A stretch of 64,000 nucleotides of DNA from Escherichia coli (GTDB lineage Bacteria; Pseudomonadota; Gammaproteobacteria; Enterobacterales; Enterobacteriaceae). Within the stretch, counting starts at the first letter, position 1, and each line of letters opens with the position of its first letter. The stretch lies in assembly GCF_013122565.1 (NCBI RefSeq), contig NZ_CP053258.1; one strand, written 5' to 3'. Positions 19,295 to 46,198 of the stretch are shown here, piece by piece. Under the pieces are notes generated by a model. It ran no database searches and was not told the origin of the DNA. It saw only the letters and a program-made list of their open reading frames with translations. The position numbers were made by a program, and so were the translations under genes.

Positions 19295-20515
19295 ATGAAA
19301 CGTGCAGTGATTACTGGCCTGGGCATTGTTTCCAGCATCGGTAATAACCAGCAGGAAGTCCTGGCATCTCTGCGTGAAGGACGTTCAGGGATCACTTTCT
19401 CTCAGGAGCTGAAGGATTCCGGCATGCGTAGCCACGTCTGGGGCAACGTAAAACTGGATACCACTGGCCTCATTGACCGCAAAGTTGTGCGCTTTATGAG
19501 CGACGCATCCATTTATGCATTCCTTTCTATGGAGCAGGCAATCGCTGATGCGGGCCTCTCTCCGGAAGCTTACCAGAATAACCCGCGCGTTGGCCTGATT
19601 GCAGGTTCCGGCGGCGGCTCCCCGCGTTTCCAGGTGTTCGGCGCTGACGCAATGCGCGGTCCGCGCGGCCTGAAAGCGGTTGGCCCATATGTGGTCACCA
19701 AAGCGATGGCATCCGGCGTTTCTGCATGTCTCGCCACGCCGTTTAAAATTCATGGCGTTAACTACTCCATCAGCTCCGCGTGTGCGACTTCCGCACACTG
19801 TATCGGTAACGCAGTAGAGCAGATCCAACTGGGCAAACAGGACATCGTGTTTGCTGGCGGCGGCGAAGAGCTGTGCTGGGAAATGGCTTGCGAATTCGAC
19901 GCAATGGGTGCGCTGTCTACTAAATACAACGACACCCCGGAAAAAGCCTCCCGTACTTACGATGCTCACCGTGACGGTTTCGTTATCGCTGGCGGCGGCG
20001 GTATGGTGGTGGTTGAAGAGCTGGAACACGCGCTGGCGCGTGGTGCTCACATCTATGCTGAAATCGTTGGCTACGGCGCAACCTCTGATGGCGCAGACAT
20101 GGTTGCTCCGTCTGGCGAAGGCGCAGTACGTTGTATGCAGATGGCGATGCATGGCGTTGATACCCCAATCGATTACCTGAACTCTCACGGTACTTCGACT
20201 CCGGTTGGCGACGTGAAAGAGCTGGCAGCTATCCGTGAAGTGTTCGGCGATAAGAGCCCGGCGATTTCTGCAACCAAAGCCATGACCGGTCACTCTCTGG
20301 GCGCTGCGGGTGTGCAGGAAGCTATCTACTCTCTGCTGATGCTGGAACACGGCTTTATCGCCCCGAGCATCAACATTGAAGAGCTGGACGAGCAGGCTGC
20401 GGGTCTGAACATCGTGACCGAAACGACCGATCGCGAACTGACCACTGTTATGTCTAACAGCTTCGGCTTCGGCGGCACCAACGCCACGCTGGTAATGCGC
20501 AAGCTGAAAGATTAA
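19295..20515 (+). CDS. fabB: 3-oxoacyl-ACP synthase I (KAS I)
   Basis: 406-aa [25 protein letters not shown]... Confidence 0.95.
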
Positions 20516-25309: not shown

Positions 25310-26121
25310 TGTCCGACCAGCAACAACCGCCAGTTTATAAAATTGCGCTGGGTATTGAGTACGACGGCAGTAGGTATTATGGCTGGCAACGGCAGAATGA
25401 AGTCCGCAGTGTGCAGGAGAAGCTGGAGAAGGCGCTCTCCCAGGTGGCGAACGAACCCATCACCGTCTTCTGCGCCGGGCGCACTGACGCAGGGGTACAC
25501 GGTACCGGGCAGGTTGTGCATTTCGAAACAACCGCGCAGCGCAAAGACGCTGCGTGGACGTTGGGCGTAAATGCGAATTTACCTGGTGACATCGCCGTGC
25601 GTTGGGTTAAAGCTGTACCTGATGATTTTCATGCCCGATTTAGCGCCACGGCTCGCCGTTATCGCTACATCATCTACAATCATCGGCTGCGCCCGGCGGT
25701 ACTGAGTAAAGGGGTAACCCATTTTTACGAACCGCTGGACGCTGAACGGATGCATCGGGCTGCGCAATGCTTGCTGGGCGAGAATGATTTCACCTCGTTC
25801 CGTGCGGTGCAGTGCCAGTCCCGAACCCCGTGGCGCAACGTTATGCATATTAATGTCACGCGTCACGGTCCTTATGTGGTGGTTGATATCAAAGCGAATG
25901 CCTTTGTACATCATATGGTCAGGAATATTGTCGGCAGCCTGATGGAAGTCGGTGCCCACAACCAGCCGGAGAGCTGGATAGCAGAGTTGCTGGCGGCAAA
26001 GGACAGAACGCTGGCGGCAGCAACGGCAAAAGCGGAAGGGCTGTATCTGGTCGCGGTGGATTACCCTGACCGGTATGATCTTCCAAAACCGCCAATGGGC
26101 CCGCTATTTCTGGCGGACTAA
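25309..26121 (+). CDS. truA: tRNA pseudouridine(38-40) synthase
   Basis: 270-aa ORF with [10 protein letters not shown] catalytic motif; start overlaps usg stop. Confidence 0.9.
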
Positions 26122-26203
26122 CGAGAATAATGCTCGGAACATTTCAGGCTGTAGCCAACGTAGTTACAGCCTGAAAGATGACGAGTACAAGGCATAGGCA
26201 AAT

Positions 26204-26863
26204 ATGGACCTGATTTATTTCCTCATCGATTTTATCCTGCACATTGACGTGCATCTGGCAGAGCTGGTCGCGGAGTACGGCGTCTGGGTTTATGCCATTT
26301 TGTTCTTAATTTTGTTCTGTGAAACCGGTCTGGTGGTAACGCCGTTTTTACCGGGTGATTCATTGCTGTTTGTTGCCGGAGCGTTGGCATCACTGGAAAC
26401 CAACGATCTCAACGTCCATATGATGGTGGTGCTGATGCTGATCGCCGCGATTGTGGGTGACGCGGTCAATTACACTATCGGGCGGTTGTTCGGTGAAAAG
26501 TTATTCAGTAATCCCAATTCGAAAATTTTCCGTCGCAGTTATCTCGACAAAACCCATCAGTTTTATGAGAAACATGGCGGCAAAACGATTATTCTCGCCC
26601 GTTTTGTGCCGATCGTCAGAACGTTCGCCCCGTTTGTTGCGGGAATGGGCCACATGTCGTACCGTCATTTCGCCGCTTATAACGTGATCGGCGCACTGTT
26701 GTGGGTACTGCTTTTTACCTACGCAGGCTATTTCTTCGGTACAATCCCGATGGTTCAGGATAACCTTAAGCTGCTGATCGTCGGGATTATTGTGGTGTCT
26801 ATTTTGCCGGGCGTCATCGAAATAATCCGTCACAAACGCGCTGCGGCACGCGCCGCAAAATAA
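26204..26863 (+). CDS. dedA: DedA-family inner-membrane protein
   Basis: 219-aa membrane ORF. Confidence 0.85.
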
Positions 26864-27018
26864 AAAGTAACTCCGCGGTTCGACCACTTTTTTATCCAAA
26901 GTTTCGGGCTGTTATGTTTTAATGTGCAACATTCATGGTCTGTTGGGGGCAAAAATGGCATTATGCGTCCCCAAAGATAAAACTGGCATCGAACCAGGTT
27001 CAGACAGAAAGGTCCCTA

Positions 27019-27933
27019 ATGAGCTGGATTGAACGAATTAAAAGCAACATTACTCCCACCCGCAAGGCGAGCATTCCTGAAGGGGTGTGGACTAAGTGTG
27101 ATAGCTGCGGTCAGGTTTTATACCGCGCTGAGCTGGAACGTAATCTTGAGGTCTGTCCGAAGTGTGACCATCACATGCGTATGACAGCGCGTAATCGCCT
27201 GCATAGCCTGTTAGATGAAGGAAGCCTTGTGGAGCTGGGTAGCGAGCTTGAGCCGAAAGATGTGCTGAAGTTTCGTGACTCCAAGAAGTATAAAGACCGT
27301 CTGGCATCTGCGCAGAAAGAAACCGGCGAAAAAGATGCGCTTGTGGTGATGAAAGGCACTCTGTATGGAATGCCGGTTGTCGCTGCGGCATTCGAGTTCG
27401 CCTTTATGGGCGGTTCAATGGGGTCTGTTGTGGGTGCACGTTTCGTGCGTGCCGTTGAGCAGGCGCTGGAAGATAACTGCCCGCTGATCTGCTTCTCCGC
27501 CTCTGGTGGCGCACGTATGCAGGAAGCACTGATGTCGCTGATGCAGATGGCGAAAACCTCTGCGGCACTGGCAAAAATGCAGGAGCGCGGCTTGCCGTAC
27601 ATCTCCGTGCTGACCGACCCGACGATGGGCGGTGTTTCTGCAAGTTTCGCCATGCTGGGCGATCTCAACATCGCTGAACCGAAAGCGTTAATCGGCTTTG
27701 CCGGTCCGCGTGTTATCGAACAGACCGTTCGCGAAAAACTGCCGCCAGGATTCCAGCGCAGTGAATTCCTGATCGAGAAAGGCGCGATCGACATGATCGT
27801 CCGTCGTCCGGAAATGCGCCTGAAACTGGCGAGCATTCTGGCGAAGTTGATGAATCTGCCAGCGCCGAATCCTGAAGCGCCGCGTGAAGGCGTAGTGGTA
27901 CCCCCGGTACCGGATCAGGAACCTGAGGCCTGA
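27019..27933 (+). CDS. accD: Acetyl-CoA carboxylase carboxyltransferase beta subunit
   Basis: Match begins [10 protein letters not shown]...; N-terminal Cys4 zinc finger (CDSCG...CPKCDHH); the ORF track's upstream Met at 26935 is not used. Confidence 0.95.
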
Positions 27934-27942
27934 TAACTGATA

Positions 27943-27971
27943 AGGGCAGGGCCACTGGCTCTGCCCTTTTG
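27943..27971 (+). terminator. Hairpin plus T-tract after accD
   Basis: AGGGCAG...CTGCCCT followed by TTTT. Confidence 0.55.
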
Positions 27972-28002
27972 CTATTCTCACCGTAACGAATCAGCGGATA
28001 CC

Positions 28003-29271
28003 ATGATTATCAAACGCACTCCTCAAGCCGCGTCGCCTCTGGCTTCGTGGCTTTCTTATCTGGAAAACCTGCACAGTAAAACTATCGATCTCGGCCTTGA
28101 GCGCGTGAGCCAGGTCGCGGCGCGTCTTGGCGTTCTGAAACCAGCGCCCTTTGTGTTTACCGTTGCGGGTACGAATGGCAAAGGCACCACCTGCCGTACG
28201 CTGGAGTCGATTCTGATGGCGGCAGGGTACAAAGTGGGCGTCTACAGTTCGCCTCATCTGGTGCGTTATACCGAGCGCGTACGTGTGCAGGGTCAGGAAT
28301 TGCCGGAATCGGCCCACACCGCCTCTTTTGCGGAGATTGAATCGGCACGCGGTGATATTTCCCTGACCTATTTCGAGTACGGTACGCTGTCGGCGTTGTG
28401 GCTGTTCAAACAGGCACAACTTGACGTGGTGATTCTGGAAGTAGGGCTGGGTGGTCGTCTGGACGCAACCAATATTGTCGATGCCGATGTCGCGGTAGTA
28501 ACCAGTATTGCGCTTGATCATACCGACTGGCTGGGGCCAGATCGTGAAAGTATTGGTCGCGAGAAAGCAGGCATCTTTCGTAGCGAAAAACCGGCAATTG
28601 TCGGTGAGCCGGAAATGCCTTCTACTATTGCTGATGTGGCGCAGGAAAAAGGTGCACTGTTACAACGTCGGGGCGTTGAGTGGAACTATTCCGTCACCGA
28701 TCATGACTGGACGTTTAGCGATGCTCACGGCACGCTGGAAAACCTGCCGTTGCCGCTTGTCCCGCAACCGAATGCCGCAACGGCGCTGGCGGCACTGCGT
28801 GCCAGCGGGCTGGAGGTCAGTGAAAATGCCATTCGCGACGGGATTGCCAGCGCAATTTTGCCGGGACGTTTCCAGATTGTGAGCGAGTCGCCACGCGTTA
28901 TTTTTGATGTCGCGCATAATCCACATGCGGCGGAATATCTTACCGGGCGTATGAAAGCGCTACCGAAAAACGGGCGCGTGCTGGCGGTTATCGGTATGCT
29001 ACATGATAAAGATATTGCCGGAACTCTGGCCTGGTTGAAAAGCGTGGTTGATGACTGGTATTGTGCGCCACTGGAAGGGCCGCGCGGTGCCACGGCAGAA
29101 CAACTGCTTGAGCATTTGGGTAACGGCAAATCATTTGATAGCGTGGCGCAGGCATGGGATGCCGCAATGGCGGACGCTAAAGCGGAAGATACCGTGCTGG
29201 TGTGTGGTTCGTTCCACACGGTCGCACATGTCATGGAAGTGATTGACGCGAGGAGAAGCGGTGGCAAGTAA
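28003..29271 (+). CDS. folC: Dihydrofolate synthase / folylpolyglutamate synthase
   Basis: 422-aa ORF with Mur-ligase P-loop GTNGKGTT. Confidence 0.95.
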   Translation: MIIKRTPQAASPLASWLSYLENLHSKTIDLGLERVSQVAARLGVLKPAPFVFTVAGTNGKGTTCRTLESILMAAGYKVGVYSSPHLVRYTERVRVQGQELPESAHTASFAEIESARGDISLTYFEYGTLSALWLFKQAQLDVVILEVGLGGRLDATNIVDADVAVVTSIALDHTDWLGPDRESIGREKAGIFRSEKPAIVGEPEMPSTIADVAQEKGALLQRRGVEWNYSVTDHDWTFSDAHGTLENLPLPLVPQPNAATALAALRASGLEVSENAIRDGIASAILPGRFQIVSESPRVIFDVAHNPHAAEYLTGRMKALPKNGRVLAVIGMLHDKDIAGTLAWLKSVVDDWYCAPLEGPRGATAEQLLEHLGNGKSFDSVAQAWDAAMADAKAEDTVLVCGSFHTVAHVMEVIDARRSGGK

Positions 29272-29923
29272 GTTTCAGAATCGGTTAGTGGGCACGATCG
29301 TGCTGGTGGCGCTGGGGGTGATTGTACTTCCAGGGCTGCTGGACGGGCAGAAAAAACATTATCAGGATGAGTTCGCGGCTATCCCGCTGGTGCCGAAAGC
29401 GGGCGATCGTGATGAGCCTGATATGATGCCAGCCGCTACCCAGGCGTTGCCGACGCAACCGCCGGAAGGTGCAGCGGAAGAGGTGCGGGCAGGTGATGCC
29501 GCAGCACCGTCGCTCGATCCGGCCACTATTGCAGCCAATAACACCGAGTTTGAACCGGAACCTGCACCGGTCGTCCCACCGAAGCCGAAACCGGTGGAGC
29601 CGCCTAAGCCGAAGGTTGAAGCACCACCTGCGCCGAAGCCAGAACAGAAGCCGGTCGTGGAAGAAAAAGCAGCGCCAACGGGTAAAGCCTATGTTGTGCA
29701 ACTGGGCGCGCTGAAAAATGCCGATAAAGTGAATGAGATTGTCGGTAAGCTGCGCGGTGCCGGTTATCGGGTTTATACGTCGCCATCCACGCCAGTGCAG
29801 GGTAAAATTACCCGTATTCTGGTTGGGCCGGATGCCTCGAAAGATAAGCTGAAAGGTTCGCTGGGTGAGTTGAAGCAACTTTCTGGCTTAAGTGGTGTGG
29901 TAATGGGCTATACGCCGAATTAA
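29261..29923 (+). CDS. dedD: Cell-division protein DedD (SPOR domain)
   Basis: Match begins VASKFQNRLVG (GTG start at 29261, overlapping folC 3' end); Pro/Lys/Glu-rich linker and C-terminal SPOR domain. Confidence 0.8.
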   Translation: MASKFQNRLVGTIVLVALGVIVLPGLLDGQKKHYQDEFAAIPLVPKAGDRDEPDMMPAATQALPTQPPEGAAEEVRAGDAAAPSLDPATIAANNTEFEPEPAPVVPPKPKPVEPPKPKVEAPPAPKPEQKPVVEEKAAPTGKAYVVQLGALKNADKVNEIVGKLRGAGYRVYTSPSTPVQGKITRILVGPDASKDKLKGSLGELKQLSGLSGVVMGYTPN

Positions 29924-29932
29924 TACGGTCTT

Positions 29933-30008
29933 GCCTGATGCGACGCTGGCGCGTCTTATCAGACCTGTGCAGGGGTAGAACCGTAGGTCGGATAAGGCGT
30001 TTACGCCG
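29933..30008. repeat. BIME (two inverted REP units) between dedD and cvpA
   Basis: GCCTGATGCGACGCTGGCGCGTCTTATCAGACC and GTAGGTCGGATAAGGCGTTTACGCCGCATCCGAC. Confidence 0.8.
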
Positions 30009-30108
30009 CATCCGACACGCATTGCACGATGCCGCAAAGGCATAAAAAGTCGATGGCGTTGAATATTTTTTCAGCGCCATTTTTATTGATGCGCGGGAAG
30101 GAAATCCC

Positions 30109-30124
30109 TACGCAAACGTTTTCT
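30109..30124 (+). promoter_or_regulatory. PUR box (PurR operator) upstream of the cvpA-purF operon
   Basis: tACGCAAACGTTTTCt matches the PurR operator consensus, ~60 bp upstream of cvpA. Confidence 0.7.
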
Positions 30125-30181
30125 TTTTCTGTTAGAATGCGCCCCGAACAGGATGACAGGGCGTAAAATCGTGGGACACAT

Positions 30182-30670
30182 ATGGTCTGGATTGATTACG
30201 CCATAATCGCGGTGATTGCTTTTTCCTCTCTGGTTAGCCTGATCCGCGGCTTTGTTCGTGAAACGTTATCGCTGGTGACATGGGGGTGTGCTTTCTTTGT
30301 TGCCAGTCATTACTACACTTACCTGTCAGTCTGGTTTACGGGCTTTGAAGACGAACTGGTTCGAAATGGGATTGCCATCGCGGTACTGTTTATCGCTACC
30401 CTGATCGTTGGCGCAATCGTCAACTTCGTGATAGGTCAGCTGGTAGAGAAAACCCATCTGACGGGCACCGATCGGGTGCTGGGCGTCTGTTTCGGTGCGT
30501 TGCGCGGTGTGTTGATTGTTGCCGCCATTCTCTTCTTTCTCGACTCCTTTACCGGGGTGTCGAAAAGCGAAGACTGGAGCAAATCACAGCTGATCCCGCA
30601 GTTCAGTTTTATCATCAGATGGTTTTTTGATTATCTGCAAAGCTCGTCAAGTTTCTTGCCCAGAGCGTAA
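30182..30670 (+). CDS. cvpA: Colicin V production membrane protein
   Basis: 162-aa membrane ORF immediately upstream of purF. Confidence 0.9.
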   Translation: MVWIDYAIIAVIAFSSLVSLIRGFVRETLSLVTWGCAFFVASHYYTYLSVWFTGFEDELVRNGIAIAVLFIATLIVGAIVNFVIGQLVEKTHLTGTDRVLGVCFGALRGVLIVAAILFFLDSFTGVSKSEDWSKSQLIPQFSFIIRWFFDYLQSSSSFLPRA

Positions 30671-30706
30671 GTGCTCTGAGATGTGGCTTAACGAGGAAAA
30701 AGACGT

Positions 30707-32224
30707 ATGTGCGGTATTGTCGGTATCGCCGGTGTTATGCCGGTTAACCAGTCGATTTATGATGCCTTAACGGTGCTTCAGCATCGCGGTCAGGATGCCG
30801 CCGGCATCATCACCATAGATGCCAATAACTGCTTCCGTTTGCGTAAAGCGAACGGGCTGGTGAGCGATGTATTTGAAGCTCGTCATATGCAGCGTTTGCA
30901 GGGCAATATGGGCATTGGTCATGTGCGTTACCCCACGGCTGGCAGCTCCAGCGCCTCTGAAGCGCAGCCGTTTTACGTTAACTCTCCGTATGGTATTACG
31001 CTTGCCCACAACGGCAATCTGACCAACGCGCATGAGTTACGTAAAAAACTGTTTGAAGAAAAACGCCGCCACATCAACACCACTTCCGACTCGGAAATTC
31101 TGCTTAATATCTTCGCCAGCGAGCTGGACAACTTCCGCCACTACCCGCTGGAAGCCGACAATATTTTCGCTGCCATTGCTGCCACAAACCGCTTAATCCG
31201 CGGCGCGTATGCCTGCGTGGCGATGATTATCGGCCATGGTATGGTTGCTTTCCGCGATCCAAACGGCATTCGTCCGCTGGTGTTGGGGAAACGTGATATT
31301 GACGAGAACCGTACAGAATATATGGTCGCTTCCGAAAGCGTAGCGCTCGATACGCTGGGCTTTGATTTCCTGCGTGACGTCGCGCCGGGCGAAGCGATTT
31401 ACATCACTGAAGAAGGGCAGTTGTTTACCCGTCAATGTGCTGACAATCCGGTCAGCAATCCGTGCCTGTTTGAGTATGTATACTTTGCTCGCCCGGACTC
31501 GTTCATCGACAAAATTTCCGTTTACAGCGCGCGTGTGAATATGGGCACGAAACTGGGCGAGAAAATTGCCCGCGAATGGGAAGATCTGGATATCGATGTG
31601 GTGATCCCGATCCCGGAAACCTCGTGTGATATCGCGCTGGAAATTGCGCGTATTCTGGGCAAACCGTACCGCCAGGGCTTCGTTAAAAACCGCTATGTTG
31701 GCCGCACCTTCATCATGCCGGGTCAGCAGCTGCGTCGTAAGTCCGTGCGCCGTAAACTGAACGCCAACCGCGCCGAGTTCCGCGATAAAAACGTCCTGCT
31801 GGTCGACGACTCCATCGTCCGTGGCACCACTTCTGAGCAGATTATCGAGATGGCACGCGAAGCCGGAGCGAAGAAAGTGTACCTCGCTTCTGCGGCACCG
31901 GAAATTCGCTTCCCGAACGTTTATGGTATTGATATGCCGAGCGCCACGGAGCTTATCGCCCACGGTCGTGAAGTGGATGAAATTCGCCAGATCATCGGTG
32001 CTGACGGGTTGATTTTCCAGGATCTGAACGATCTGATCGAAGCCGTTCGCGCTGAAAACCCGGATATCCAGCAGTTTGAATGCTCGGTGTTCAACGGCGT
32101 CTACGTCACCAAAGATGTTGATCAGAGCTACCTCGATTTCCTCGATACGTTACGTAATGACGACGCCAAAGCAGTGCAACGTCAGAACGAAGTGGAAAAT
32201 CTCGAAATGCATAACGAAGGATGA
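30707..32224 (+). CDS. purF: Amidophosphoribosyltransferase
   Basis: 505-aa ORF starting MCGIVGIAG (N-terminal nucleophile Cys). Confidence 0.95.
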
Positions 32225-32318
32225 TGCCTTCGCTCAGGGTGCCGGTCTGGCACCCTGACTTGCAACTCCCGCCGAAATCCTGCAAAGTCTGCCTGCAAGT
32301 CTGACAGGGCAACTATTT

Positions 32319-32888
32319 ATGAAACGACTCATTGTAGGCATCAGCGGTGCCAGCGGCGCGATTTATGGCGTGCGCTTATTACAGGTTCTGCGCGATGTCA
32401 CAGATATCGAAACGCATCTGGTGATGAGCCAGGCGGCGCGCCAGACCTTATCCCTCGAAACGGATTTTTCCCTGCGCGAAGTGCAGGCATTAGCCGATGT
32501 CACGCACGATGCGCGCGATATTGCCGCCAGCATTTCTTCTGGTTCTTTCCAGACACTGGGGATGGTGATTTTACCCTGTTCAATCAAAACCCTTTCCGGC
32601 ATTGTCCATAGCTATACCGATGGTTTACTGACCCGTGCGGCAGATGTGGTGCTGAAAGAGCGTCGCCCGTTGGTGCTCTGCGTGCGTGAAACACCATTGC
32701 ACTTAGGCCATCTGCGTTTAATGACGCAGGCAGCAGAAATCGGTGCGGTGATTATGCCTCCCGTTCCGGCGTTTTATCATCGCCCGCAATCCCTTGATGA
32801 TGTGATAAATCAGACGGTTAATCGTGTTCTTGACCAGTTTGCGATAACCCTTCCTGAAGATCTCTTTGCCCGCTGGCAGGGCGCATAA
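32319..32888 (+). CDS. ubiX: Flavin prenyltransferase UbiX
   Basis: 189-aa ORF MKRLIVGISGASGAIYGVRLL... Confidence 0.9.
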   Translation: MKRLIVGISGASGAIYGVRLLQVLRDVTDIETHLVMSQAARQTLSLETDFSLREVQALADVTHDARDIAASISSGSFQTLGMVILPCSIKTLSGIVHSYTDGLLTRAADVVLKERRPLVLCVRETPLHLGHLRLMTQAAEIGAVIMPPVPAFYHRPQSLDDVINQTVNRVLDQFAITLPEDLFARWQGA

Positions 32889-32896
32889 CTCCGCTG

Positions 32897-32920
32897 TTGC
32901 CCTGTTTCAGGGCAATTTTG
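32897..32920 (+). terminator. Hairpin plus T-tract after ubiX
   Basis: TTGCCCTG-tttc-CAGGGCAA followed by TTTT. Confidence 0.6.
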
Positions 32921-33068
32921 CAACCGCGATCAAATCCTCGACATTTTGTTTCTGCCATTCAATCGAAACGCTGCGATTCAACCGCTATACCTGCTATCTT
33001 CAACTTCAGGACAATAATGCAACGTCTTATTAACATATTTAACGTTGAATGTTACTGTTGTCGTCAAG

Positions 33069-33084
33069 ATGGCATAAGACCTGC
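33069..33084 (+). promoter_or_regulatory. Candidate sigma54 (-24/-12) promoter upstream of argT
   Basis: TGGCATAAGACCTGCA fits TGGCAC-N5-TTGCA spacing, ~70 bp upstream of argT. Confidence 0.5.
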
Positions 33085-33153
33085 ATGAAAGAGCCTGCAA
33101 ACACACAACACAATACACAACATAAAAAAGCCATTTTCACTTGAGGGTTATGT

Positions 33154-33936
33154 ATGAAGAAGTCGATTCTCGCTCTGTCTTTGTTAGTCGGTCTCTCCGC
33201 AGCGGCTTCCAGCTATGCGGCGCTACCGGAGACGGTACGTATCGGAACCGATACCACCTACGCACCGTTCTCATCGAAAGATGCTAAAGGTGATTTTGTT
33301 GGCTTTGATATCGATCTCGGTAACGAGATGTGCAAACGGATGCAGGTGAAATGTACCTGGGTTGCCAGTGACTTTGACGCGCTGATCCCCTCACTGAAAG
33401 CGAAAAAAATCGACGCCATTATTTCGTCGCTCTCCATTACCGATAAACGTCAGCAGGAGATTGCTTTCTCCGACAAGTTGTACGCCGCAGATTCTCGTTT
33501 GATTGCCGCCAAAGGTTCGCCGATTCAGCCAACGCTGGATTCACTGAAAGGTAAACATGTTGGTGTGCTGCAGGGATCAACCCAGGAAGCTTACGCTAAC
33601 GAGACCTGGCGTAGCAAAGGCGTGGATGTGGTGGCCTATGCCAACCAGGATTTGGTTTATTCCGATCTGGCTGCAGGACGTCTGGATGCTGCGTTACAAG
33701 ATGAAGTTGCTGCCAGCGAAGGATTCCTCAAGCAACCTGCTGGTAAAGACTTCGCCTTTGCTGGCTCATCAGTGAAAGACAAAAAATACTTCGGTGATGG
33801 CACCGGTGTAGGGCTACGTAAAGATGATGCTGAACTGACGGCTGCCTTCAATAAGGCGCTTGGCGAGCTGCGTCAGGACGGCACCTACGACAAGATGGCG
33901 AAAAAGTATTTCGACTTTAATGTCTACGGTGACTGA
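33154..33936 (+). CDS. argT: Lysine/arginine/ornithine periplasmic binding protein
   Basis: 260-aa secreted ORF, paralog of the adjacent hisJ. Confidence 0.85.
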
Positions 33937-34156
33937 TACGTCGCAGGGAAGCTGTACCTGATGGAATGATCATCATGGTACACGCCAGGTTTGTTGCACT
34001 ATCGTGGTGCATTGAAATGCATACTTAAGCATTTTTAATGAAAAATAATACGTCTAACGGGGCGGGATATTTTGCCTTGATGGTCAATTTTATGGCACGA
34101 TAAGTGTAACAAACCTGTAAATATTCCCTATAAAAAGACTGTCAGTTGAGGACATT

Positions 34157-34939
34157 ATGAAAAAACTGGTGCTATCGCTCTCTCTGGTTCTGGCCTTCTC
34201 CAGTGCAACTGTGGCGTTTGCTGCGATTCCGCAAAACATCCGCATCGGTACCGACCCGACCTATGCGCCATTTGAATCAAAAAATTCACAAGGCGAACTG
34301 GTTGGTTTCGATATCGATCTGGCGAAGGAGTTGTGCAAGCGCATCAATACGCAATGTACGTTTGTCGAAAACCCGCTGGATGCGTTAATCCCGTCCTTAA
34401 AAGCGAAGAAGATTGACGCCATCATGTCATCGCTTTCCATTACGGAAAAACGTCAGCAAGAAATTGCCTTCACCGACAAACTGTACGCTGCCGATTCTCG
34501 TCTGGTGGTGGCGAAAAATTCCGACATTCAGCCGACAGTCGAATCGCTGAAAGGCAAGCGGGTAGGCGTATTGCAGGGCACCACCCAGGAGACGTTCGGT
34601 AACGAACACTGGGCACCAAAAGGCATTGAAATCGTCTCGTATCAGGGGCAGGACAACATTTATTCTGACCTGACTGCCGGACGTATTGATGCCGCGTTCC
34701 AGGATGAGGTCGCTGCCAGTGAAGGTTTCCTCAAACAACCCGTCGGTAAAGATTACAAATTCGGTGGCCCGTCTGTAAAAGATGAAAAACTGTTTGGCGT
34801 AGGGACCGGCATGGGCCTGCGTAAAGAAGATAACGAACTGCGCGAGGCACTGAACAAAGCCTTTGCCGAAATGCGCGCTGACGGTACTTACGAGAAATTA
34901 GCGAAAAAGTACTTCGATTTTGATGTTTATGGTGGTTAA
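34157..34939 (+). CDS. hisJ: Histidine periplasmic binding protein
   Basis: 260-aa secreted ORF upstream of hisQMP. Confidence 0.85.
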
Positions 34940-35028
34940 TCGCCATCGGTGAAAGAAAGCCCGCTCCCTTCGGGTAACCGGAGGGAGACAAGAGGCGGTA
35001 ATTCACCACACACGACAGGACAGGCAGC

Positions 35029-35715
35029 ATGTTGTATGGGTTTTCAGGTGTTATTTTACAGGGTGCGCTCGTCACGCTGGAGCTGGCTATCAGCTCTGTA
35101 GTGCTCGCTGTAATCATCGGTTTAATTGGCGCTGGCGGTAAGCTCTCGCAAAATCGGCTTTCGGGGCTGATTTTCGAAGGGTACACCACGCTGATTCGAG
35201 GCGTGCCGGACTTGGTGTTGATGCTGCTGATTTTCTACGGTTTGCAGATTGCACTAAACACGGTGACGGAGGCGATGGGCGTCGGGCAGATTGATATCGA
35301 TCCGATGGTCGCTGGTATTATTACTCTCGGTTTTATCTACGGTGCTTATTTTACCGAAACGTTCCGTGGTGCTTTTATGGCAGTGCCGAAAGGACATATA
35401 GAGGCGGCGACGGCGTTCGGTTTTACTCGTGGGCAAGTGTTTCGGCGGATCATGTTTCCGGCGATGATGCGTTACGCCCTGCCAGGCATTGGCAACAACT
35501 GGCAGGTGATCCTCAAATCTACCGCACTGGTTTCGTTACTCGGCCTGGAAGATGTGGTCAAAGCCACGCAGCTGGCAGGCAAAAGTACCTGGGAACCGTT
35601 CTATTTCGCCATCGTCTGTGGCGTGATTTACCTGGTTTTCACCACCGTTTCCAATGGTGTGCTGCTGTTCCTTGAGCGCCGCTACTCTGTGGGTGTGAAG
35701 AGGGCTGACCTGTGA
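35029..35715 (+). CDS. hisQ: Histidine/LAO ABC transporter permease
   Basis: 228-aa permease ORF. Confidence 0.9.
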   Translation: MLYGFSGVILQGALVTLELAISSVVLAVIIGLIGAGGKLSQNRLSGLIFEGYTTLIRGVPDLVLMLLIFYGLQIALNTVTEAMGVGQIDIDPMVAGIITLGFIYGAYFTETFRGAFMAVPKGHIEAATAFGFTRGQVFRRIMFPAMMRYALPGIGNNWQVILKSTALVSLLGLEDVVKATQLAGKSTWEPFYFAIVCGVIYLVFTTVSNGVLLFLERRYSVGVKRADL

Positions 35716-36428
35716 TCGAAATCTTACATGAATACTGGAAACCGCTGCTGTGGACCGACGGTTATCGCTTTACTGGTGTGGCGATCACTCTGTGGCTGCT
35801 TATTTTGTCGGTAGTGATAGGCGGAGTCCTGGCGCTGTTTCTGGCGATTGGTCGTGTCTCCAGTAATAAATACATCCAGTTTCCAATCTGGTTATTTACC
35901 TATATTTTTCGCGGTACGCCGCTGTATGTTCAGTTGCTGGTGTTCTATTCCGGCATGTATACGCTGGAGATTGTTAAGGGGACCGAGTTTCTTAACGCCT
36001 TTTTCCGCAGTGGCCTGAACTGTACCGTGCTGGCGCTGACGCTTAACACCTGCGCTTACACTACCGAGATTTTTGCTGGGGCAATCCGTTCGGTTCCGCA
36101 TGGGGAAATTGAAGCCGCCAGAGCCTATGGTTTCTCGACCTTTAAAATGTATCGCTGCATTATTTTGCCTTCTGCGCTGCGTATTGCGTTACCGGCATAC
36201 AGCAACGAAGTGATCCTGATGCTGCACTCTACTGCGCTGGCATTTACTGCCACGGTGCCGGATCTGCTGAAAATAGCCCGCGATATTAACGCCGCCACGT
36301 ATCAACCTTTTACTGCCTTCGGCATTGCCGCGGTGCTCTATTTAATTATCTCTTATGTCCTGATCAGCCTCTTTCGCAGAGCGGAAAAACGCTGGTTGCA
36401 GCATGTGAAACCTTCTTCAACGCACTGA
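35712..36428 (+). CDS. hisM: Histidine/LAO ABC transporter permease
   Basis: 238-aa permease ORF; ATGA overlap with hisQ. Confidence 0.9.
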
Positions 36429-36435
36429 GAATACG

Positions 36436-37209
36436 ATGTCCGAGAATAAATTAAACGTTATCGATTTGCACAAACGCTACGGCGAACATGAAGTGCTGAA
36501 AGGGGTATCACTGCAAGCGAATGCCGGAGATGTAATAAGCATCATCGGATCGTCGGGATCGGGGAAAAGTACCTTTCTGCGCTGCATTAACTTCCTCGAA
36601 AAACCGAGTGAAGGGTCGATCGTGGTCAATGGCCAGACGATCAATCTGGTGCGCGACAAAGACGGTCAACTCAAAGTCGCCGATAAAAATCAGCTGCGCT
36701 TACTGCGCACACGCCTGACGATGGTATTCCAGCACTTCAATCTCTGGAGCCATATGACGGTGCTGGAAAACGTCATGGAAGCGCCGATTCAGGTGTTGGG
36801 CCTGAGCAAGCAGGAAGCGCGCGAGCGGGCGGTGAAGTATCTGGCAAAAGTCGGGATAGACGAACGTGCACAGGGGAAATATCCGGTGCATCTTTCCGGC
36901 GGTCAGCAACAGCGTGTTTCTATCGCGCGGGCGCTGGCGATGGAACCGGAAGTTTTACTGTTTGATGAACCTACCTCGGCGCTCGATCCTGAACTGGTAG
37001 GCGAAGTGTTGCGCATTATGCAGCAACTGGCAGAAGAGGGGAAAACCATGGTGGTAGTGACCCACGAAATGGGCTTTGCTCGCCATGTTTCTACTCACGT
37101 CATTTTCCTCCATCAGGGGAAAATAGAAGAAGAGGGCGCGCCGGAGCAGTTATTTGGCAACCCGCAAAGTCCTCGTCTGCAACAGTTCCTTAAAGGTTCG
37201 CTGAAATAA
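36436..37209 (+). CDS. hisP: Histidine/LAO ABC transporter ATP-binding subunit
   Basis: 257-aa ORF with Walker [10 protein letters not shown] and ABC signature LSGGQQQR. Confidence 0.9.
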
Positions 37210-37214
37210 TTTCC

Positions 37215-37246
37215 TCTCCGGTGGCTAACGCTGCCGGAGTATTTTC
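37215..37246 (+). terminator. Hairpin plus T-rich tract after hisP
   Basis: CTCCGG...CCGGAG followed by TATTTT. Confidence 0.5.
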
Positions 37247-37405
37247 AAGGGGAATTTGCGAGTCCGCTTCCGCTGAAATGTAAAAGTTGCAGTCCGCTAA
37301 AAATAGTTCTGAATTCGCTGTCCAAAGATAAAAACTGACTGCTGCATTGGGTGTAAATCGTGGTTATTGTCGCGTCATCTTAAATTTGAGGGGTGACGGA
37401 ACGCC

Positions 37406-38296
37406 ATGACAATATCGACAACTTCCACGCCGCATGATGCGGTATTTAAATCTTTTTTACGCCATCCAGACACCGCGCGGGATTTTATTGATATTCATCT
37501 TCCCGCGCCGCTGCGCAAACTGTGTGATTTAACAACGCTTAAACTGGAACCAAACAGTTTTATTGATGAAGACCTGCGGCAATATTATTCCGACCTCTTG
37601 TGGTCTGTGAAAACGCAGGAGGGAGCGGGTTATATTTATGTAGTGATAGAGCACCAAAGTAAGCCGGAAGAATTAATGGCTTTTCGCATGATGCGCTATT
37701 CCATTGCGGCGATGCAAAACCATCTTGATGCAGGCTATAAAGAGCTTCCATTGGTGATCCCGATGCTGTTTTATCATGGTTGCAGAAGCCCTTATCCATA
37801 TTCACTCTGCTGGCTTGATGAATTTGCCGAGCCTGCGATTGCCCGCAAAATTTATTCATCGGCTTTTCCGCTGGTGGATATTACCGTGGTGCCGGATGAC
37901 GAGATTATGCAACATCGCAAAATGGCGCTGTTGGAGTTAATTCAGAAACATATTCGTCAGCGCGATCTGTTGGGATTAGTCGACCAAATTGTTTCGCTGC
38001 TAGTTACAGGGAACACTAATGACAGACAGCTAAAAGCCCTGTTTAATTACGTATTACAAACGGGGGATGCCCAGCGTTTCCGTGCATTTATTGGTGAGAT
38101 AGCGGAACGCGCACCACAAGAAAAGGAGAAACTGATGACCATTGCTGACAGATTACGTGAAGAAGGCGCAATGCAGGGCAAACACGAAGAAGCCCTGCGT
38201 ATTGCTCAGGAGATGCTGGAAAAAGGATTTGACTACGAAGTCATCCTGACGCTGACCCGACTTTCGCCAGACGATCTTATCGCGCAAAGCCACTAA
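37406..38296 (+). CDS. rpnB: Recombination-promoting nuclease RpnB (YhgA / transposase_31-like)
   Basis: 296-aa [21 protein letters not shown]...; recognised as YfcI/RpnB. Confidence 0.8.
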
Positions 38297-38343
38297 TCCT
38301 GTAACACCGGGAGTTAACTGGCGGATGTTTGCAGTAAACCACA

Positions 38344-39237
38344 TCAGCGAACGACATCCGCCAGCGCCTCTTCTAAATCGTACCAGCGAAACGCAAAACC
38401 CGCTTCTTCCAGCCGTTTAGGCAGCGCGCGTTGTCCACCTAATACCAGTACTGAAGATTCGCCCATTAACAGCCGAATGGCGGTTGCGGGGACGCGCAAA
38501 ATAGCCGGGCGATGCAGCGCATGACCGAGCGCATGGGCAAATTGTTCATGGCGTATCGGGTAGGGCGAAACCATATTAAATGGCCCGCGCAGCTCGTTAT
38601 CCAGCAGCCAGAGAATGCCGTTGACCATATCATCAATATGAATCCAGGCCAGATACTGCCGACCGGAACCAATCGGCCCGCCCAGGCCAAGACGAAACGG
38701 CGGCAGCATTTTACCGAGAATACCACCGTCTGGTGCCAGCACTACGCCGGTACGCAGCAGGCACACTCGCGTTTTGTCACTTTGTGCCCGACAGGCAATT
38801 TCTTCCCAGCGGGCGCAGAGTTTATGGGTAAATTCGTTATGCGGCGGTTCCTCTTCGGTAACCACCACTTCACCTAAGTCGCCATAAAAGCCCGTTGCCG
38901 AGCCGGAAATGAGTACCGACGGTGGCGTGTCGCTGGCATTAATCAAATCGACCAGTTTTTGCGTGATATTCCAGCGGCTTTGGCAGAGACGCTCTTTTTG
39001 CTCGTGAGTCCAGCGTTTATCAGCAATCGGTTCTCCGGCCAGGTTGATTACCGCATCAACGCCGTTGAGGTTGCTTTGATCGGCAAGCCCTTGCCATAGT
39101 GTCACCTGCGGCCCGAGCACGGAACTGGCTTTCTGCGGGTTACGCGTCACTACCGTGATTTTATGGCCCAGATCCAGCAAACGCGGAATCAAATGGCGAC
39201 CAATTAATCCCGTCCCTCCGGTGATCACTATGTTCAT
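38344..39237 (-). CDS. yfcH: NAD-dependent epimerase/dehydratase family protein
   Basis: 297-aa ORF with N-terminal GGTGLIG Rossmann motif. Confidence 0.8.
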
Positions 39238-39257
39238 GCAGCCTCCCGATATGGCGG

Positions 39258-39620
39258 TTAACGCTGCCAGCTTAAGGTCATGGATACCGAATCAGCGTAG
39301 CGCAGCGCGTGCAGTTTATCGATCTCCACTTCAGCATACGTCACCCAGTGATGTTCACGTGCGATATCGAGCACATCCTGAGTTAATTTTTCCAGCAAAG
39401 AGAAACGGTTATTCTCTACATGCTGAATAATGTTTTTCGTTACGGTGCGATAATTCAGCGCATCGTTGATATCTTCGCTGGTGCGCGCTTTATCGGCGGG
39501 GTAGTGGATCGTCACATTGATAACAATATCCTGACGGTTGTTAATTTCTTCTTCCTTAATTCCGATAAACGTACGTAAACGAAGGTTCTTTATACGAATA
39601 ATAGCGGCAGGTTGTGCCAT
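39258..39620 (-). CDS. folX: Dihydroneopterin triphosphate 2'-epimerase
   Basis: 120-aa [23 protein letters not shown]... Confidence 0.9.
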
Positions 39621-39676
39621 TGCAGGTTCTCCGTTGTTTTACTTAGGATGAAATAATACACGAGAACCTGTTTCTG

Positions 39677-41153
<1,477 letters not shown>

Positions 41154-41156
41154 TGA

Positions 41157-41711
41157 GTGATGAAACTGATGTTTGCATCGGACATTCATGGGTCGTTACC
41201 GGCGACGGAACGTGTTCTGGAGTTGTTTGCCCAAAGCGGTGCCCACTGGCTGGTGATCCTTGGCGACGTGTTGAATCACGGCCCGCGTAATGCTTTACCG
41301 GAGGGTTACGCGCCAGCCAAAGTCGCTGAACGGCTTAATGAAGTGGCACATAAGGTTATCGCTGTGCGCGGCAACTGCGACAGCGAAGTGGATCAAATGC
41401 TGCTGCATTTCCCAATAACCGCGCCGTGGCAACAGGTATTACTGGAAAAACAACGTCTGTTTTTGACGCATGGTCATCTTTTTGGCCCGGAAAATCTGCC
41501 TGCTTTAAACCAGAACGATGTGCTGGTGTACGGCCATACCCATCTGCCAGTGGCAGAACAGCGGGGGGAGATTTTCCACTTCAACCCCGGCTCGGTGAGT
41601 ATTCCGAAAGGCGGTAATCCGGCGAGTTATGGCATGCTGGATAATGACGTACTTAGTGTAATCGCACTCAATGATCAAAGTATCATTGCGCAGGTCGCGA
41701 TTAATCCGTAA
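41157..41711 (+). CDS. yfcE: Metallophosphoesterase (phosphodiesterase)
   Basis: 184-aa ORF with DxH...GD...GNxD calcineurin-like motifs. Confidence 0.85.
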   Translation: MMKLMFASDIHGSLPATERVLELFAQSGAHWLVILGDVLNHGPRNALPEGYAPAKVAERLNEVAHKVIAVRGNCDSEVDQMLLHFPITAPWQQVLLEKQRLFLTHGHLFGPENLPALNQNDVLVYGHTHLPVAEQRGEIFHFNPGSVSIPKGGNPASYGMLDNDVLSVIALNDQSIIAQVAINP

Positions 41712-41768
41712 TTTACCCACAACTCAAAATGCGCCGTAAGAGCGCCAGAAAAAGAAGGTTTCCTGATA

Positions 41769-42311
41769 ATGGAACAGCGTCGTTTGGCAAGTACTGAATG
41801 GGTGGATATTGTCAATGAAGAGAACGAAGTCATTGCACAAGCCAGCCGGGAACAAATGCGGGCACAGTGTCTGCGTCATCGTGCAACTTACATCGTCGTG
41901 CATGATGGCATGGGCAAAATTCTGGTCCAGCGTCGTACCGAGACAAAAGACTTTTTACCCGGCATGTTAGATGCGACCGCAGGCGGTGTAGTCCAGGCCG
42001 ATGAGCAACTGCTGGAATCCGCGCGTCGCGAAGCGGAAGAAGAGTTGGGCATTGCCGGTGTCCCCTTTGCCGAGCACGGGCAGTTCTATTTCGAAGATAA
42101 AAATTGCCGTGTCTGGGGCGCGTTGTTCAGTTGCGTCTCTCACGGTCCCTTCGCCCTACAGGAAGATGAAGTCAGTGAAGTTTGCTGGCTGACGCCGGAA
42201 GAAATCACCGCACGCTGCGATGAGTTCACTCCAGACTCGCTGAAAGCGCTGGCGTTGTGGATGAAGCGCAATGCCAAAAATGAAGCCGTAGAGACTGAAA
42301 CGGCAGAATGA
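41769..42311 (+). CDS. yfcD: Nudix hydrolase
   Basis: 180-aa ORF with Nudix box ([23 protein letters not shown]). Confidence 0.8.
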
Positions 42312-42313
42312 AA

Positions 42314-42346
42314 AAAGAGCCGCAATTGCGGCTCTTAACATTTTTA
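42314..42346. terminator. Bidirectional hairpin between convergent yfcD and yfcC
   Basis: AAAAAAGAGCCGCAATTGCGGCTCTT flanked by A-tract and T-tract. Confidence 0.65.
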
Positions 42347-43864
42347 GTGGTAGCCCATCAACTGAGCGCCGATCACTACGACGCTGGACATAATAAACAG
42401 CAGTCCAAGCAGGGTCGCGCCCACCTTCAGCCAGTTACGGAAGTCCACCCGGCACACACCGAGCGTTGCCATTAACGAAGCTGAGGTTGGGTAAATGATG
42501 TGGCTGAAGCCATCACCAAACTGGAACGCCAGCACGGTAACCTGACGGTTAACACCGACCAGATCGCCAAGCGGTGCCAGTAACGGCATAGTTAACGCCG
42601 CCTGACCAGAACCGGACGTCACGAAGAAATTAAATACTGCCTGGAAGAGCAACATAAACCAGGCCGCGACCGCATTGTCCAGACCGCTAATGGCATTGGC
42701 AATGCTGTTGAGGATGGTATTTAACACGCTGGCATCACCCGCTTCACCATTACCGACCAGCAGCAAAATCCCTTTGGCGAAACCCACCAGCAGGGCAGGG
42801 GCGATCATCATTCGCGCCCCTTCGGTAAAGGATGAAGCCATGGTATTAACCGTCATGCCGTTAAGGCGGAAAACAACGCCGATGATGCCAATCACCAGAC
42901 CCATGGTGAAGAACTGGCTGGCAATTTCAGGAATAAACCAGGCATTAACGATCACGCCCCAAATCACCCAGACCATTACGGCGGTCAGGACAATTAATAC
43001 CAGCCAGTCACCAAAGGTAAACGGACGTTGTTCAACATCCGCCTGCTTTTCACGAAAGAAGCGGTCGGACTCATGCACGCGTGACAGAAGAGGATTCTTT
43101 TTCACACGTGAGGCGTACACCATGGTAAAGATCAGGCCAATCAGAGTGGCGATAACCCACACCACGATGCGCAACCCGGAGCCAGAAAGCACCGGAACGC
43201 CGGCAATCCCCTGAGCAACGACCACACAAAACGGGTTCATCCACGAACTGGCAAAACCGATTTGCGTGGCGATATAGGTCACCAGGACGGTGGTAATACT
43301 GTCATAGCCCAGCCGGACCATTAGCGGTGCGATGATAATGGCAAAGGCGACGGCCTCTTCTCCCATACCAAATACCGCGCCGCCAAGTGAAAACAGGATA
43401 AAGAGCGCAGGAATAAAGAGAATTTCATTCCCACGGGTATGGCGAATAAGCGCCAGGATACCGTTATCAATGGTTCCTGTACGCATCACAATGCCAAACG
43501 CGCCGCCAATCACCAGCATAAACATGATGATGCCAACGGCTGTCCCGTATTTCGATCCTGAGGTTAACCCTTCAAACGGGAAGTTCATCAGGCCCGGGCG
43601 TTCATCGCCCGTCGTGAACAGCTGTACGCGGTGATACTCAGGTTCGCCTGCTTCGTTAGTCAGAATGCGAAATGAGTGTGGATCTACGACTTTGCGTGTT
43701 TTTGTTTGACCATCAACCTGATACTGCACTTCCTGACTGTCAAACATCCCCACCGGAACTACCCAGGTGGCAAGACTGGTTAAAATGGCAACAAAAAAGA
43801 TAATCACCAACGTATCGGGCATTGCCCATCTTCTGGTTGGTTTGGATTCAGTGATTGCGGACAT
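42344..43864 (-). CDS. yfcC: Inner-membrane transporter (YfcC family)
   Basis: Large polytopic membrane ORF; start placed at internal Met (MSAITESKP...) rather than the ORF-track Met at 43885. Confidence 0.8.
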   Translation of the reverse strand: MSAITESKPTRRWAMPDTLVIIFFVAILTSLATWVVPVGMFDSQEVQYQVDGQTKTRKVVDPHSFRILTNEAGEPEYHRVQLFTTGDERPGLMNFPFEGLTSGSKYGTAVGIIMFMLVIGGAFGIVMRTGTIDNGILALIRHTRGNEILFIPALFILFSLGGAVFGMGEEAVAFAIIIAPLMVRLGYDSITTVLVTYIATQIGFASSWMNPFCVVVAQGIAGVPVLSGSGLRIVVWVIATLIGLIFTMVYASRVKKNPLLSRVHESDRFFREKQADVEQRPFTFGDWLVLIVLTAVMVWVIWGVIVNAWFIPEIASQFFTMGLVIGIIGVVFRLNGMTVNTMASSFTEGARMMIAPALLVGFAKGILLLVGNGEAGDASVLNTILNSIANAISGLDNAVAAWFMLLFQAVFNFFVTSGSGQAALTMPLLAPLGDLVGVNRQVTVLAFQFGDGFSHIIYPTSASLMATLGVCRVDFRNWLKVGATLLGLLFIMSSVVVIGAQLMGYH

Positions 43865-43982
43865 AGCGCAAATATTCCCTTGCACAAAACAAAGTGGTAA
43901 GTATGCAAAGTGAGATGGCGCAATTCATTGATGCAGCGCAGTTAAGCAAGATAATCAGAAAGGATTAATGCAAATTAAGAGA

Positions 43983-44012
43983 ATAAAAAACCGGAAATAG
44001 TCACTATTTCCG
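43983..44012 (-). terminator. Hairpin plus T-tract after pta
   Basis: Minus-strand AACCGGAAATAGTGACTATTTCCGGTTTTTT downstream of the pta stop. Confidence 0.65.
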
Positions 44013-44053
44013 GTTCCGATATCCGCAGCGCAAAGCTGCGGATGATGACGAGA

Positions 44054-46198
44054 TTACTGCTGCTGTGCAGACTGAATCGCAGTCAGCGCGATGGTGTAGA
44101 CGATATCGTCAACCAGTGCGCCACGGGACAGGTCGTTAACCGGCTTGCGCATACCCTGCAGCATCGGCCCGATGGAGATCAGGTCGGCAGAACGCTGTAC
44201 CGCTTTGTAGGTGGTGTTACCGGTGTTCAGATCCGGGAAGATGAACACGGTAGCGCGACCTGCAACCGGAGAGTTCGGCGCTTTGGATTTCGCAACGTCA
44301 GCCATTACTGCAGCGTCGTACTGCAGCGGACCGTCGATCATCAGGTCAGGACGTTTTTCCTGCGCCAGACGAGTTGCTTCGCGAACTTTTTCTACATCGC
44401 TACCTGCACCAGAAGTCCCGGTGGAGTAGGAGAGCATAGCAACGCGCGGTTCGATACCGAAGGCCGCAGCGGAATCAGCGGACTGAATCGCGATTTCTGC
44501 CAGCTGTTCTGCGGTCGGATCCGGGTTGATCGCACAGTCACCGTAAACGTAAACCTGTTCCGGCAGCAGCATGAAGAACACGGAAGATACCAGGGAGCTG
44601 CCCGGTGCAGTTTTGATCAGCTGCAGCGGCGGACGGATGGTGTTTGCGGTAGTGTGAACAGCACCGGAAACCAGACCATCAACTTCATCCTGTTCCAGCA
44701 TCAGCGTACCGAGAACCACGTTATCTTCCAGCTGTTCGCGGGCAACGGTTTCGGTCATGCCTTTGTTCTTACGCAGCTCGACCAGACGACCAACATAGCT
44801 TTCGCGAACCACTTCTGGATCAACGATTTCAATGCCTGCACCCAGTTCTACACCCTGAGACGCTGCAACACGATTGATCTCTGCCGGATTACCCAGCAGT
44901 ACGCAAGTTGCGATACCACGTTCAGCACAGATAGCGGCTGCTTTAACGGTACGCGGTTCGTCACCTTCCGGCAGAACGATACGTTTGCCCGCTTTGCGCG
45001 CAAGTTCAGTCAGCTGATAACGGAACGCTGGCGGAGACAGACGACGGCTGCGCTCAGAAGTGGCAGTCAGAGACTCGATCCAGTCAGCGTTGATGTAGTT
45101 AGCAACGTACTCCTGAACTTTCTCGATACGCTCGTGATCGTCAACCGGAACTTCCAGGTTGAAGCTCTGCAGGCTCAGAGAAGTCTGCCAGGTGTTGGTG
45201 TTCACCATAAATACCGGCAGGCCGGTAGCGAAAGCACGTTCGCACAGTTTAGAAATGCGCGCGTCCATTTCGTAGCCGCCAGTCAGCAGCAGGGCACCGA
45301 TTTCTACGCCGTTCATGGCAGCCAGGCAAGCGGCAACCAGCACGTCAGGGCGGTCTGCGGAAGTCACCAGCAGAGAACCGGCACGGAAGTGCTCCAGCAT
45401 GTGCGGAATGCTGCGTGCGCAGAAAGTGACGGATTTAACGCGGCGAGTATTGATGTCGCCTTCGTTGATGATGGTCGCATTCAGGTGGCGAGCCATATCG
45501 ATCGCACGAGTCGCGATCAGGTCAAAGCTCCACGGCACAGCGCCGAGAACCGGCAGCGGGCTGGATTCTTGCAGCTTCGCCGGATCAACATTGTTTACTT
45601 TAGCTTTGGAAGAGTCGTCGAAAATCTCAGACAGATCCGGGCGAGTACGACCCTGTTCATCAACCGGTGCGTTCAGTTTGTTAACGATAACGCCGGTGAT
45701 GTTGGTGTTTTTGGCACCGCCGAAGCTGTTGCGGGTCAGTTCGATACGCTCTTTCAGCTGTTCCGGGGTGTCAGTGCCCTGAGACATAACGAAGACGATT
45801 TCCGCATTCAGCGTTTTAGCGATTTCGTAGTTCAGAGACTGGGCAAACTGGTGCTTACGTGTCGGGACCAGACCTTCAACCAGAACGACTTCAGCGTCTT
45901 TGGTGTTAGCGTGGTAGTTTGCGACGATCTCTTCCATCAGCACATCTTTCTGATTGCTGGAAAGCAGACCTTCAACGTAACTCATTTTCAGCGGTTCAGC
46001 GGCCGTCGTGGTGGAAGAGTTCGCACGCACGATAGTGGTAGTCTGATCGGGCGCATCGCCACCGGTACGCGGCTGAGCGATAGGTTTGAAAACGCTCAGA
46101 CGAACGCCTTTGCGTTCCATTGCACGGATCACGCCAAGGCTGACGCTGGTCAGACCGACGCTGGTTCCGGTAGGGATCAGCATAATAATACGGGACAC
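44054..46198 (-). CDS. pta: Phosphate acetyltransferase
   Basis: 714-aa [25 protein letters not shown]... Confidence 0.95.

Follow-up and report, generated by a model that had tools for sequence, protein, structure and literature searches.

The cvpA-purF operator of Escherichia coli is the prototype that defined the PurR regulon and the crystal structures of PurR bound to DNA. The original work on this operator in strain K-12, where it is known as the purF operator, is said to be that of Makaroff & Zalkin in 1985, Rolfes & Zalkin in 1988 and Schumacher et al. in 1994. Many PurR structures have been solved and were retrieved by a structure search (e.g. 1pnr, 1wet and 1qpz). PurR is a dimeric repressor of the LacI/GalR family that uses hypoxanthine and guanine as corepressors, and it opens the minor groove of the purF operator, bends it and blocks the access of RNA polymerase (PMC10912719; PMC6245113). 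The ChIP-chip survey of Cho et al. (2011; PMC3159470, Table 1) placed the motif AAGAAAACGTTTGCGT inside the region bound in vivo by PurR at the transcription unit named cvpA-purF-ubiX, of which ubiX is the third gene. That survey classed the region as a PurR target characterised earlier and found it occupied by PurR only upon addition of adenine (PMC3159470). In the same survey PurR motifs were often found between the -35 and -10 elements, a position that was read as control of transcription initiation (Cho et al., 2011; PMC3159470). A cvpA-purF regulatory fragment was also shifted by PurR in an electrophoretic mobility shift assay (EMSA; Robertson et al., 2018; PMC5829826).

The feature analysed here, located in a 64-kb stretch of E. 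coli DNA (the window), is this already known prototype PurR operator. The 16-mer ACGCAAACGTTTTCTT is the reverse complement of the ChIP-chip motif AAGAAAACGTTTGCGT of Cho et al. (2011), and alignment with K-12 MG1655 (NC_000913.3) shows 100% identity over 30052-30260, a segment that reaches 80 nt into cvpA. The features of the locus are as follows:

29261-29923: dedD (NCBIfam)
30052-30081, + strand: terminator-like hairpin and T run 3' of dedD (terminator scan; 12 pairs, loop of 6, tail TTTATTGATG)
30110-30125, + strand: PUR box ACGCAAACGTTTTCTT, the PurR operator of cvpA-purF-ubiX (exact consensus match, position weight matrix, K-12 identity and conservation)
30130-30138, + strand: putative extended -10 element of the cvpA promoter, TGTTAGAAT (read from the sequence; conservation)
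30182-30670, + strand: cvpA, colicin V production protein, 162 aa (NCBIfam NF008100 equivalog, 331 bits versus a cutoff of 264; RefSeq annotation of matching records)
30707-32224, + strand: purF, amidophosphoribosyltransferase, 505 aa (TIGR01134 equivalog, 542 bits versus a cutoff of 350)
32319-32888, + strand: ubiX, flavin prenyltransferase, 189 aa (NF004685, 310 bits)

A sequence-only reading of the window had described a close match to the PurR operator consensus just upstream of cvpA, and both parts of this description held, the 16-mer in fact fitting the consensus ACGCAAACGTTTTCNT exactly and ending 56 nt before the cvpA ATG (30182). The coordinates given at the time (30109-30124) did point to the element and were displaced by a single base on either side, thus including an extra T at the 5' side and missing the last T; the string then quoted, ACGCAAACGTTTTCT, is found at 30110-30124, and the complete 16-bp operator spans 30110-30125. 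The element, which fits the motif ACGCAAACGTTTTCNT or ACGNAAACGTTTGCNT with a central CG, forms an imperfect palindrome centred on the CG at 30117-30118, with half-sites ACGCAAAC and AAGAAAAC that are identical at six of eight positions. The consensus ACGCAAACGTTTTCNT was matched exactly once in the 64-kb window and never in 100 dinucleotide-preserving shuffles. When up to three mismatches were allowed, the window gave three matches versus 2.49 expected, an uninformative result at chance level, so that the weight is carried by the exact match only.

A position weight matrix (PWM) was built from 26 PurR ChIP-chip motifs of Cho et al. (2011; PMC3159470, Table 1) after excluding from training the cvpA and fabB sites, both of which would fall within the window. 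The cvpA PUR box scored 21.9 bits, the maximum of the window over both strands, compared with 12.1-24.8 bits (median 20.3) for the training sites. In 30 shuffled windows the top score was 14.9 bits on average and 21.3 bits at most, hence never 21.9. The next candidates in the window were:

46100-46115: second-best PWM site, ACGAACGCCTTTGCGT, 13.3 bits, also a three-mismatch consensus match
57172-57187: PWM candidate, 12.6 bits
3855-3870: PWM candidate, 12.5 bits

All three were rejected as PurR sites, their scores lying inside the range of the shuffle maxima, and the site at 46100-46115, which scores less than the shuffle maxima did on average (14.9 bits), is probably a chance match. Elsewhere in the window, the sequence ACCAAAGCGATGGCAT at 19697-19712 (+ strand) reproduces exactly the PurR ChIP-chip motif given for 'fabB-mnmC' (Cho et al., 2011; PMC3159470, Table 1). 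It lies approximately 400 nt into an open reading frame of 406 aa (19295-20515), a frame that corresponds to fabB in size and position, and the PWM score of the copy is just 10.2 bits, well inside the chance range.

The genes downstream of the box are arranged as an operon headed by cvpA, with cvpA, purF and ubiX following each other in this order on one strand. Only 36 nt separate the cvpA stop from the purF start, and the terminator scan detected no terminator-like site in this gap. De novo purine synthesis has its first committed step in the reaction catalysed by PurF, and the box lies in or beside the promoter of a purine-synthesis operon, this promoter being assigned from sequence and conservation. 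In matching E. coli records the annotated neighbourhood reads truA, dedA, accD, folC, dedD, cvpA, purF, ubiX, argT and hisJ.

The promoter itself was assigned by eye. A two-hexamer scan of 29850-30300 returned no sigma-70 promoter because no -35 element there reaches four of six matches, and with no recognisable -35 the promoter was read as one of the extended -10 type, an assignment backed by conservation. The putative extended -10 element, TGTTAGAAT, consists of TGn followed by TAGAAT (five of six matches to TATAAT) and begins 4 nt after the end of the PUR box. At a spacing of 17 bp the -35 position falls on 30110-30115, where the hexamer ACGCAA matches TTGACA at two of six positions and coincides with the left half of the PUR box. 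Transcription would start at about 30145-30147, which would put the box at roughly -36 to -21.

Conservation was analysed by a scan with the CvpA protein, using one genome per species, from which the 80 closest loci were taken. All of these belonged to the Enterobacteriaceae, the genera including Escherichia, Salmonella, Citrobacter, Enterobacter, Klebsiella and Raoultella as well as Kosakonia, Cedecea, Trabulsiella, Mangrovibacter and Atlantibacter, and 79 of them had enough upstream sequence for the box to be tested. An identical 16-mer was found in 78 of these 79 loci, at a distance of 54-59 nt from the cvpA ATG. The sole variant, ACGCAATCGTTTTCTT, carries a single change that is compatible with the motif, and its AATCG core is also found in the PurR sites of tsx and glyA (motifs of Cho et al., 2011; PMC3159470). 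All of the 80 closest loci have purF after cvpA in the same orientation, and 77 have dedD ahead of cvpA, at a dedD-cvpA distance that ranges from about 157 to 808 nt. Given that the distance to the ATG is nearly constant despite this variable spacer, the register of the box is tied to cvpA and not to dedD. Across 70 distinct upstream sequences, mean conservation was 0.999 for the box, 1.0 for the following four bases and 0.997 for TGTTAGAAT, falling to 0.91 in the leader and 0.79 further upstream. Between genera hardly any position of 30095-30145 varies, spacer bases beyond the box included, so that conservation alone cannot separate constraint on an operator from constraint on a promoter.

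Taken together, we consider it close to certain (probability of about 0.97) that the 16-mer is a PurR operator through which purines repress cvpA-purF-ubiX by occlusion of the promoter. The sequence, its K-12 identity, the genes and the conservation were observed here, and binding, corepressors and DNA distortion are taken from the literature. Purine repression of cvpA-purF had also been proposed in the sequence-only reading and is supported by the gene content, the identity to K-12, the published ChIP-chip data (PMC3159470) and the EMSA (PMC5829826). PurR binding would extend to the present locus through its identity to the K-12 sequence, where both of these experiments show binding. When purines are abundant, hypoxanthine or guanine would bind the PurR dimer as corepressor, and the liganded dimer would then bind the 16-bp imperfect palindrome, with its helix-turn-helix motifs contacting both half-sites in the major groove and its hinge helices opening the minor groove at the central CpG and bending the DNA. 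As the box would occupy the -35 position of a promoter dependent on the extended -10 element TGTTAGAAT, bound PurR is predicted to keep RNA polymerase off this promoter, and the outcome would be reduced transcription of cvpA, purF and ubiX.

Three other explanations of the 16-mer were weighed against this reading. The sequence might be kept as core promoter (the -35 region and spacer) and not act as an operator in this strain, e.g. if purR were lost or inactive, and both the near-invariance of 30095-30145, which takes in bases outside the box, and the failure of tblastn to find a PurR-like open reading frame anywhere in the window (best E = 0.78) are in line with such a scenario. We nevertheless judge it extremely unlikely, considering that purR is established as an E. 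coli core gene, that ACGCAA makes a poor -35 element and a promoter role alone leaves a perfect PUR box unexplained, and that PurR binds both in vivo and in vitro at the K-12 site, which has the identical sequence. In K-12 coordinates, the purR site lies at around 1.74 Mb and the cvpA site at around 2.43 Mb (PMC3159470).

Another LacI/GalR paralogue, such as RbsR, could alternatively be the main or an additional binder of the box. Of the PurR paralogues with a solved structure, RbsR is the closest (322 bits), and it has been reported to repress purHD (review PMC10912719); the literature examined contained no report of RbsR at cvpA-purF, however, and it is PurR itself that was found at this site by ChIP and EMSA (PMC3159470; PMC5829826), making a leading or supplementary role of such a paralogue very unlikely. 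As for a consensus match that arose by chance and has no function, the chance-level count of three-mismatch matches and the one shuffle in 30 that scored 21.3 bits could be taken in its favour, but exact matches were absent from all 100 shuffles, the site lies within the promoter of a purine biosynthesis operon and is identical in nearly all the species loci tested, and the 16-mer is the published experimental site (PMC3159470). Shuffles, K-12 identity, published site and conservation thus effectively refute the chance reading, to which we attach a negligible probability.

Upstream of the PurR operator, the hairpin at 30052-30081 forms the boundary of the cvpA control region and closes the dedD unit. 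From this hairpin through the 28 nt leading up to the box (30052-30109), most positions are at least 90% conserved in the 70 distinct Enterobacteriaceae sequences, a level that appears to be above expectation for a plain terminator and spacer. In an in vitro study, a transcript of reverse orientation has also been listed for the intergenic region that precedes cvpA (PMC3141248). Because conservation extends approximately 50 nt upstream of the box (30058-30109) and because of this opposite-direction transcript, the control region might hold a second, undescribed element beside the PurR operator, such as a site for another factor or a divergent or antisense transcript, a suggestion that we regard as improbable.

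Further upstream, the DNA that follows the dedD stop carries repeats of the REP/BIME type (approximately 29897-30030) ahead of the cvpA control region, and this stretch contains the few differences from K-12 that were found in the spacer. Evidence for these repeats came from sub-threshold matches to the REP-derived Rfam family naRNA4 on both strands (29897-30020) and from an 801-bp query around the site, which matched a median of eight places per E. coli genome. The Rfam search (29850-30750) gave no match over the operator or the leader, the sub-threshold naRNA4 hits over the REP-like repeats being the only ones obtained.

At the level of the strain, the 801 bases around the site were found at approximately 98% identity, with annotated dedD and cvpA, in 5425 of 5426 complete E. 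coli genomes. Over larger segments (26000-46000 and 27001-33700) the window was 98.1-98.6% identical to the E. coli genomes listed, identities of at least 99% being seen in only two of about 5430 records, and identity was 96.0% with Escherichia sp. MOD1-EC7003 and about 95% with E. whittamii. An uncommon lineage of E. coli, or a close relative such as Shigella, is the probable source of the window. The record NZ_JAATUR010000041.1, labelled Escherichia coli SCPM-O-B-8794, showed 93% identity to the window over 5.5 kb, compared with about 98% for K-12 and AH04, and probably does not represent E. coli in the strict sense, judging from this divergence.

As a discovery the site is minor. Its use is as an annotation anchor, which indicates that the window carries an intact K-12-like purF control region, and as a positive control showing that a real operator can be recognised from sequence alone.

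The closest described system is the prototype PUR box of K-12, the purF (cvpA-purF-ubiX) operator, which has the same 16-mer within 200 bp of identical surrounding sequence, the same flanking genes (dedD, cvpA, purF and ubiX) and an equal distance to the cvpA ATG; the control region shows no differences, and the window as a whole is approximately 98% identical and thus derives from a different E. coli-like strain. Other PUR boxes (purT, purHD, purL, purMN, purC, purEK, pyrD and others) share the 16-bp palindromic ACGNAAACGTTTGCNT with its central CG, and many of them overlap the -35 to -10 region of their promoter, as the cvpA box does (PMC3159470). The right half-site of the cvpA box, GTTTTCTT, differs from the symmetric GTTTGCGT at two positions, and these departures make it less symmetric than the boxes of purT or purHD. 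Unlike the cvpA box, those of purB and purR are intragenic and act as roadblocks, and that of carAB lies far upstream (PMC3159470; PMC6245113). LacI with the lac operator and other LacI/GalR pairs use the same arrangement of a dimer with helix-turn-helix motifs and hinge helices on a pseudo-palindromic operator over the promoter (PMC5829826; PMC10912719), whereas the ligand acts in opposite ways, hypoxanthine or guanine being a corepressor that promotes DNA binding by PurR and the ligand of LacI an inducer that releases the protein (PMC10912719).
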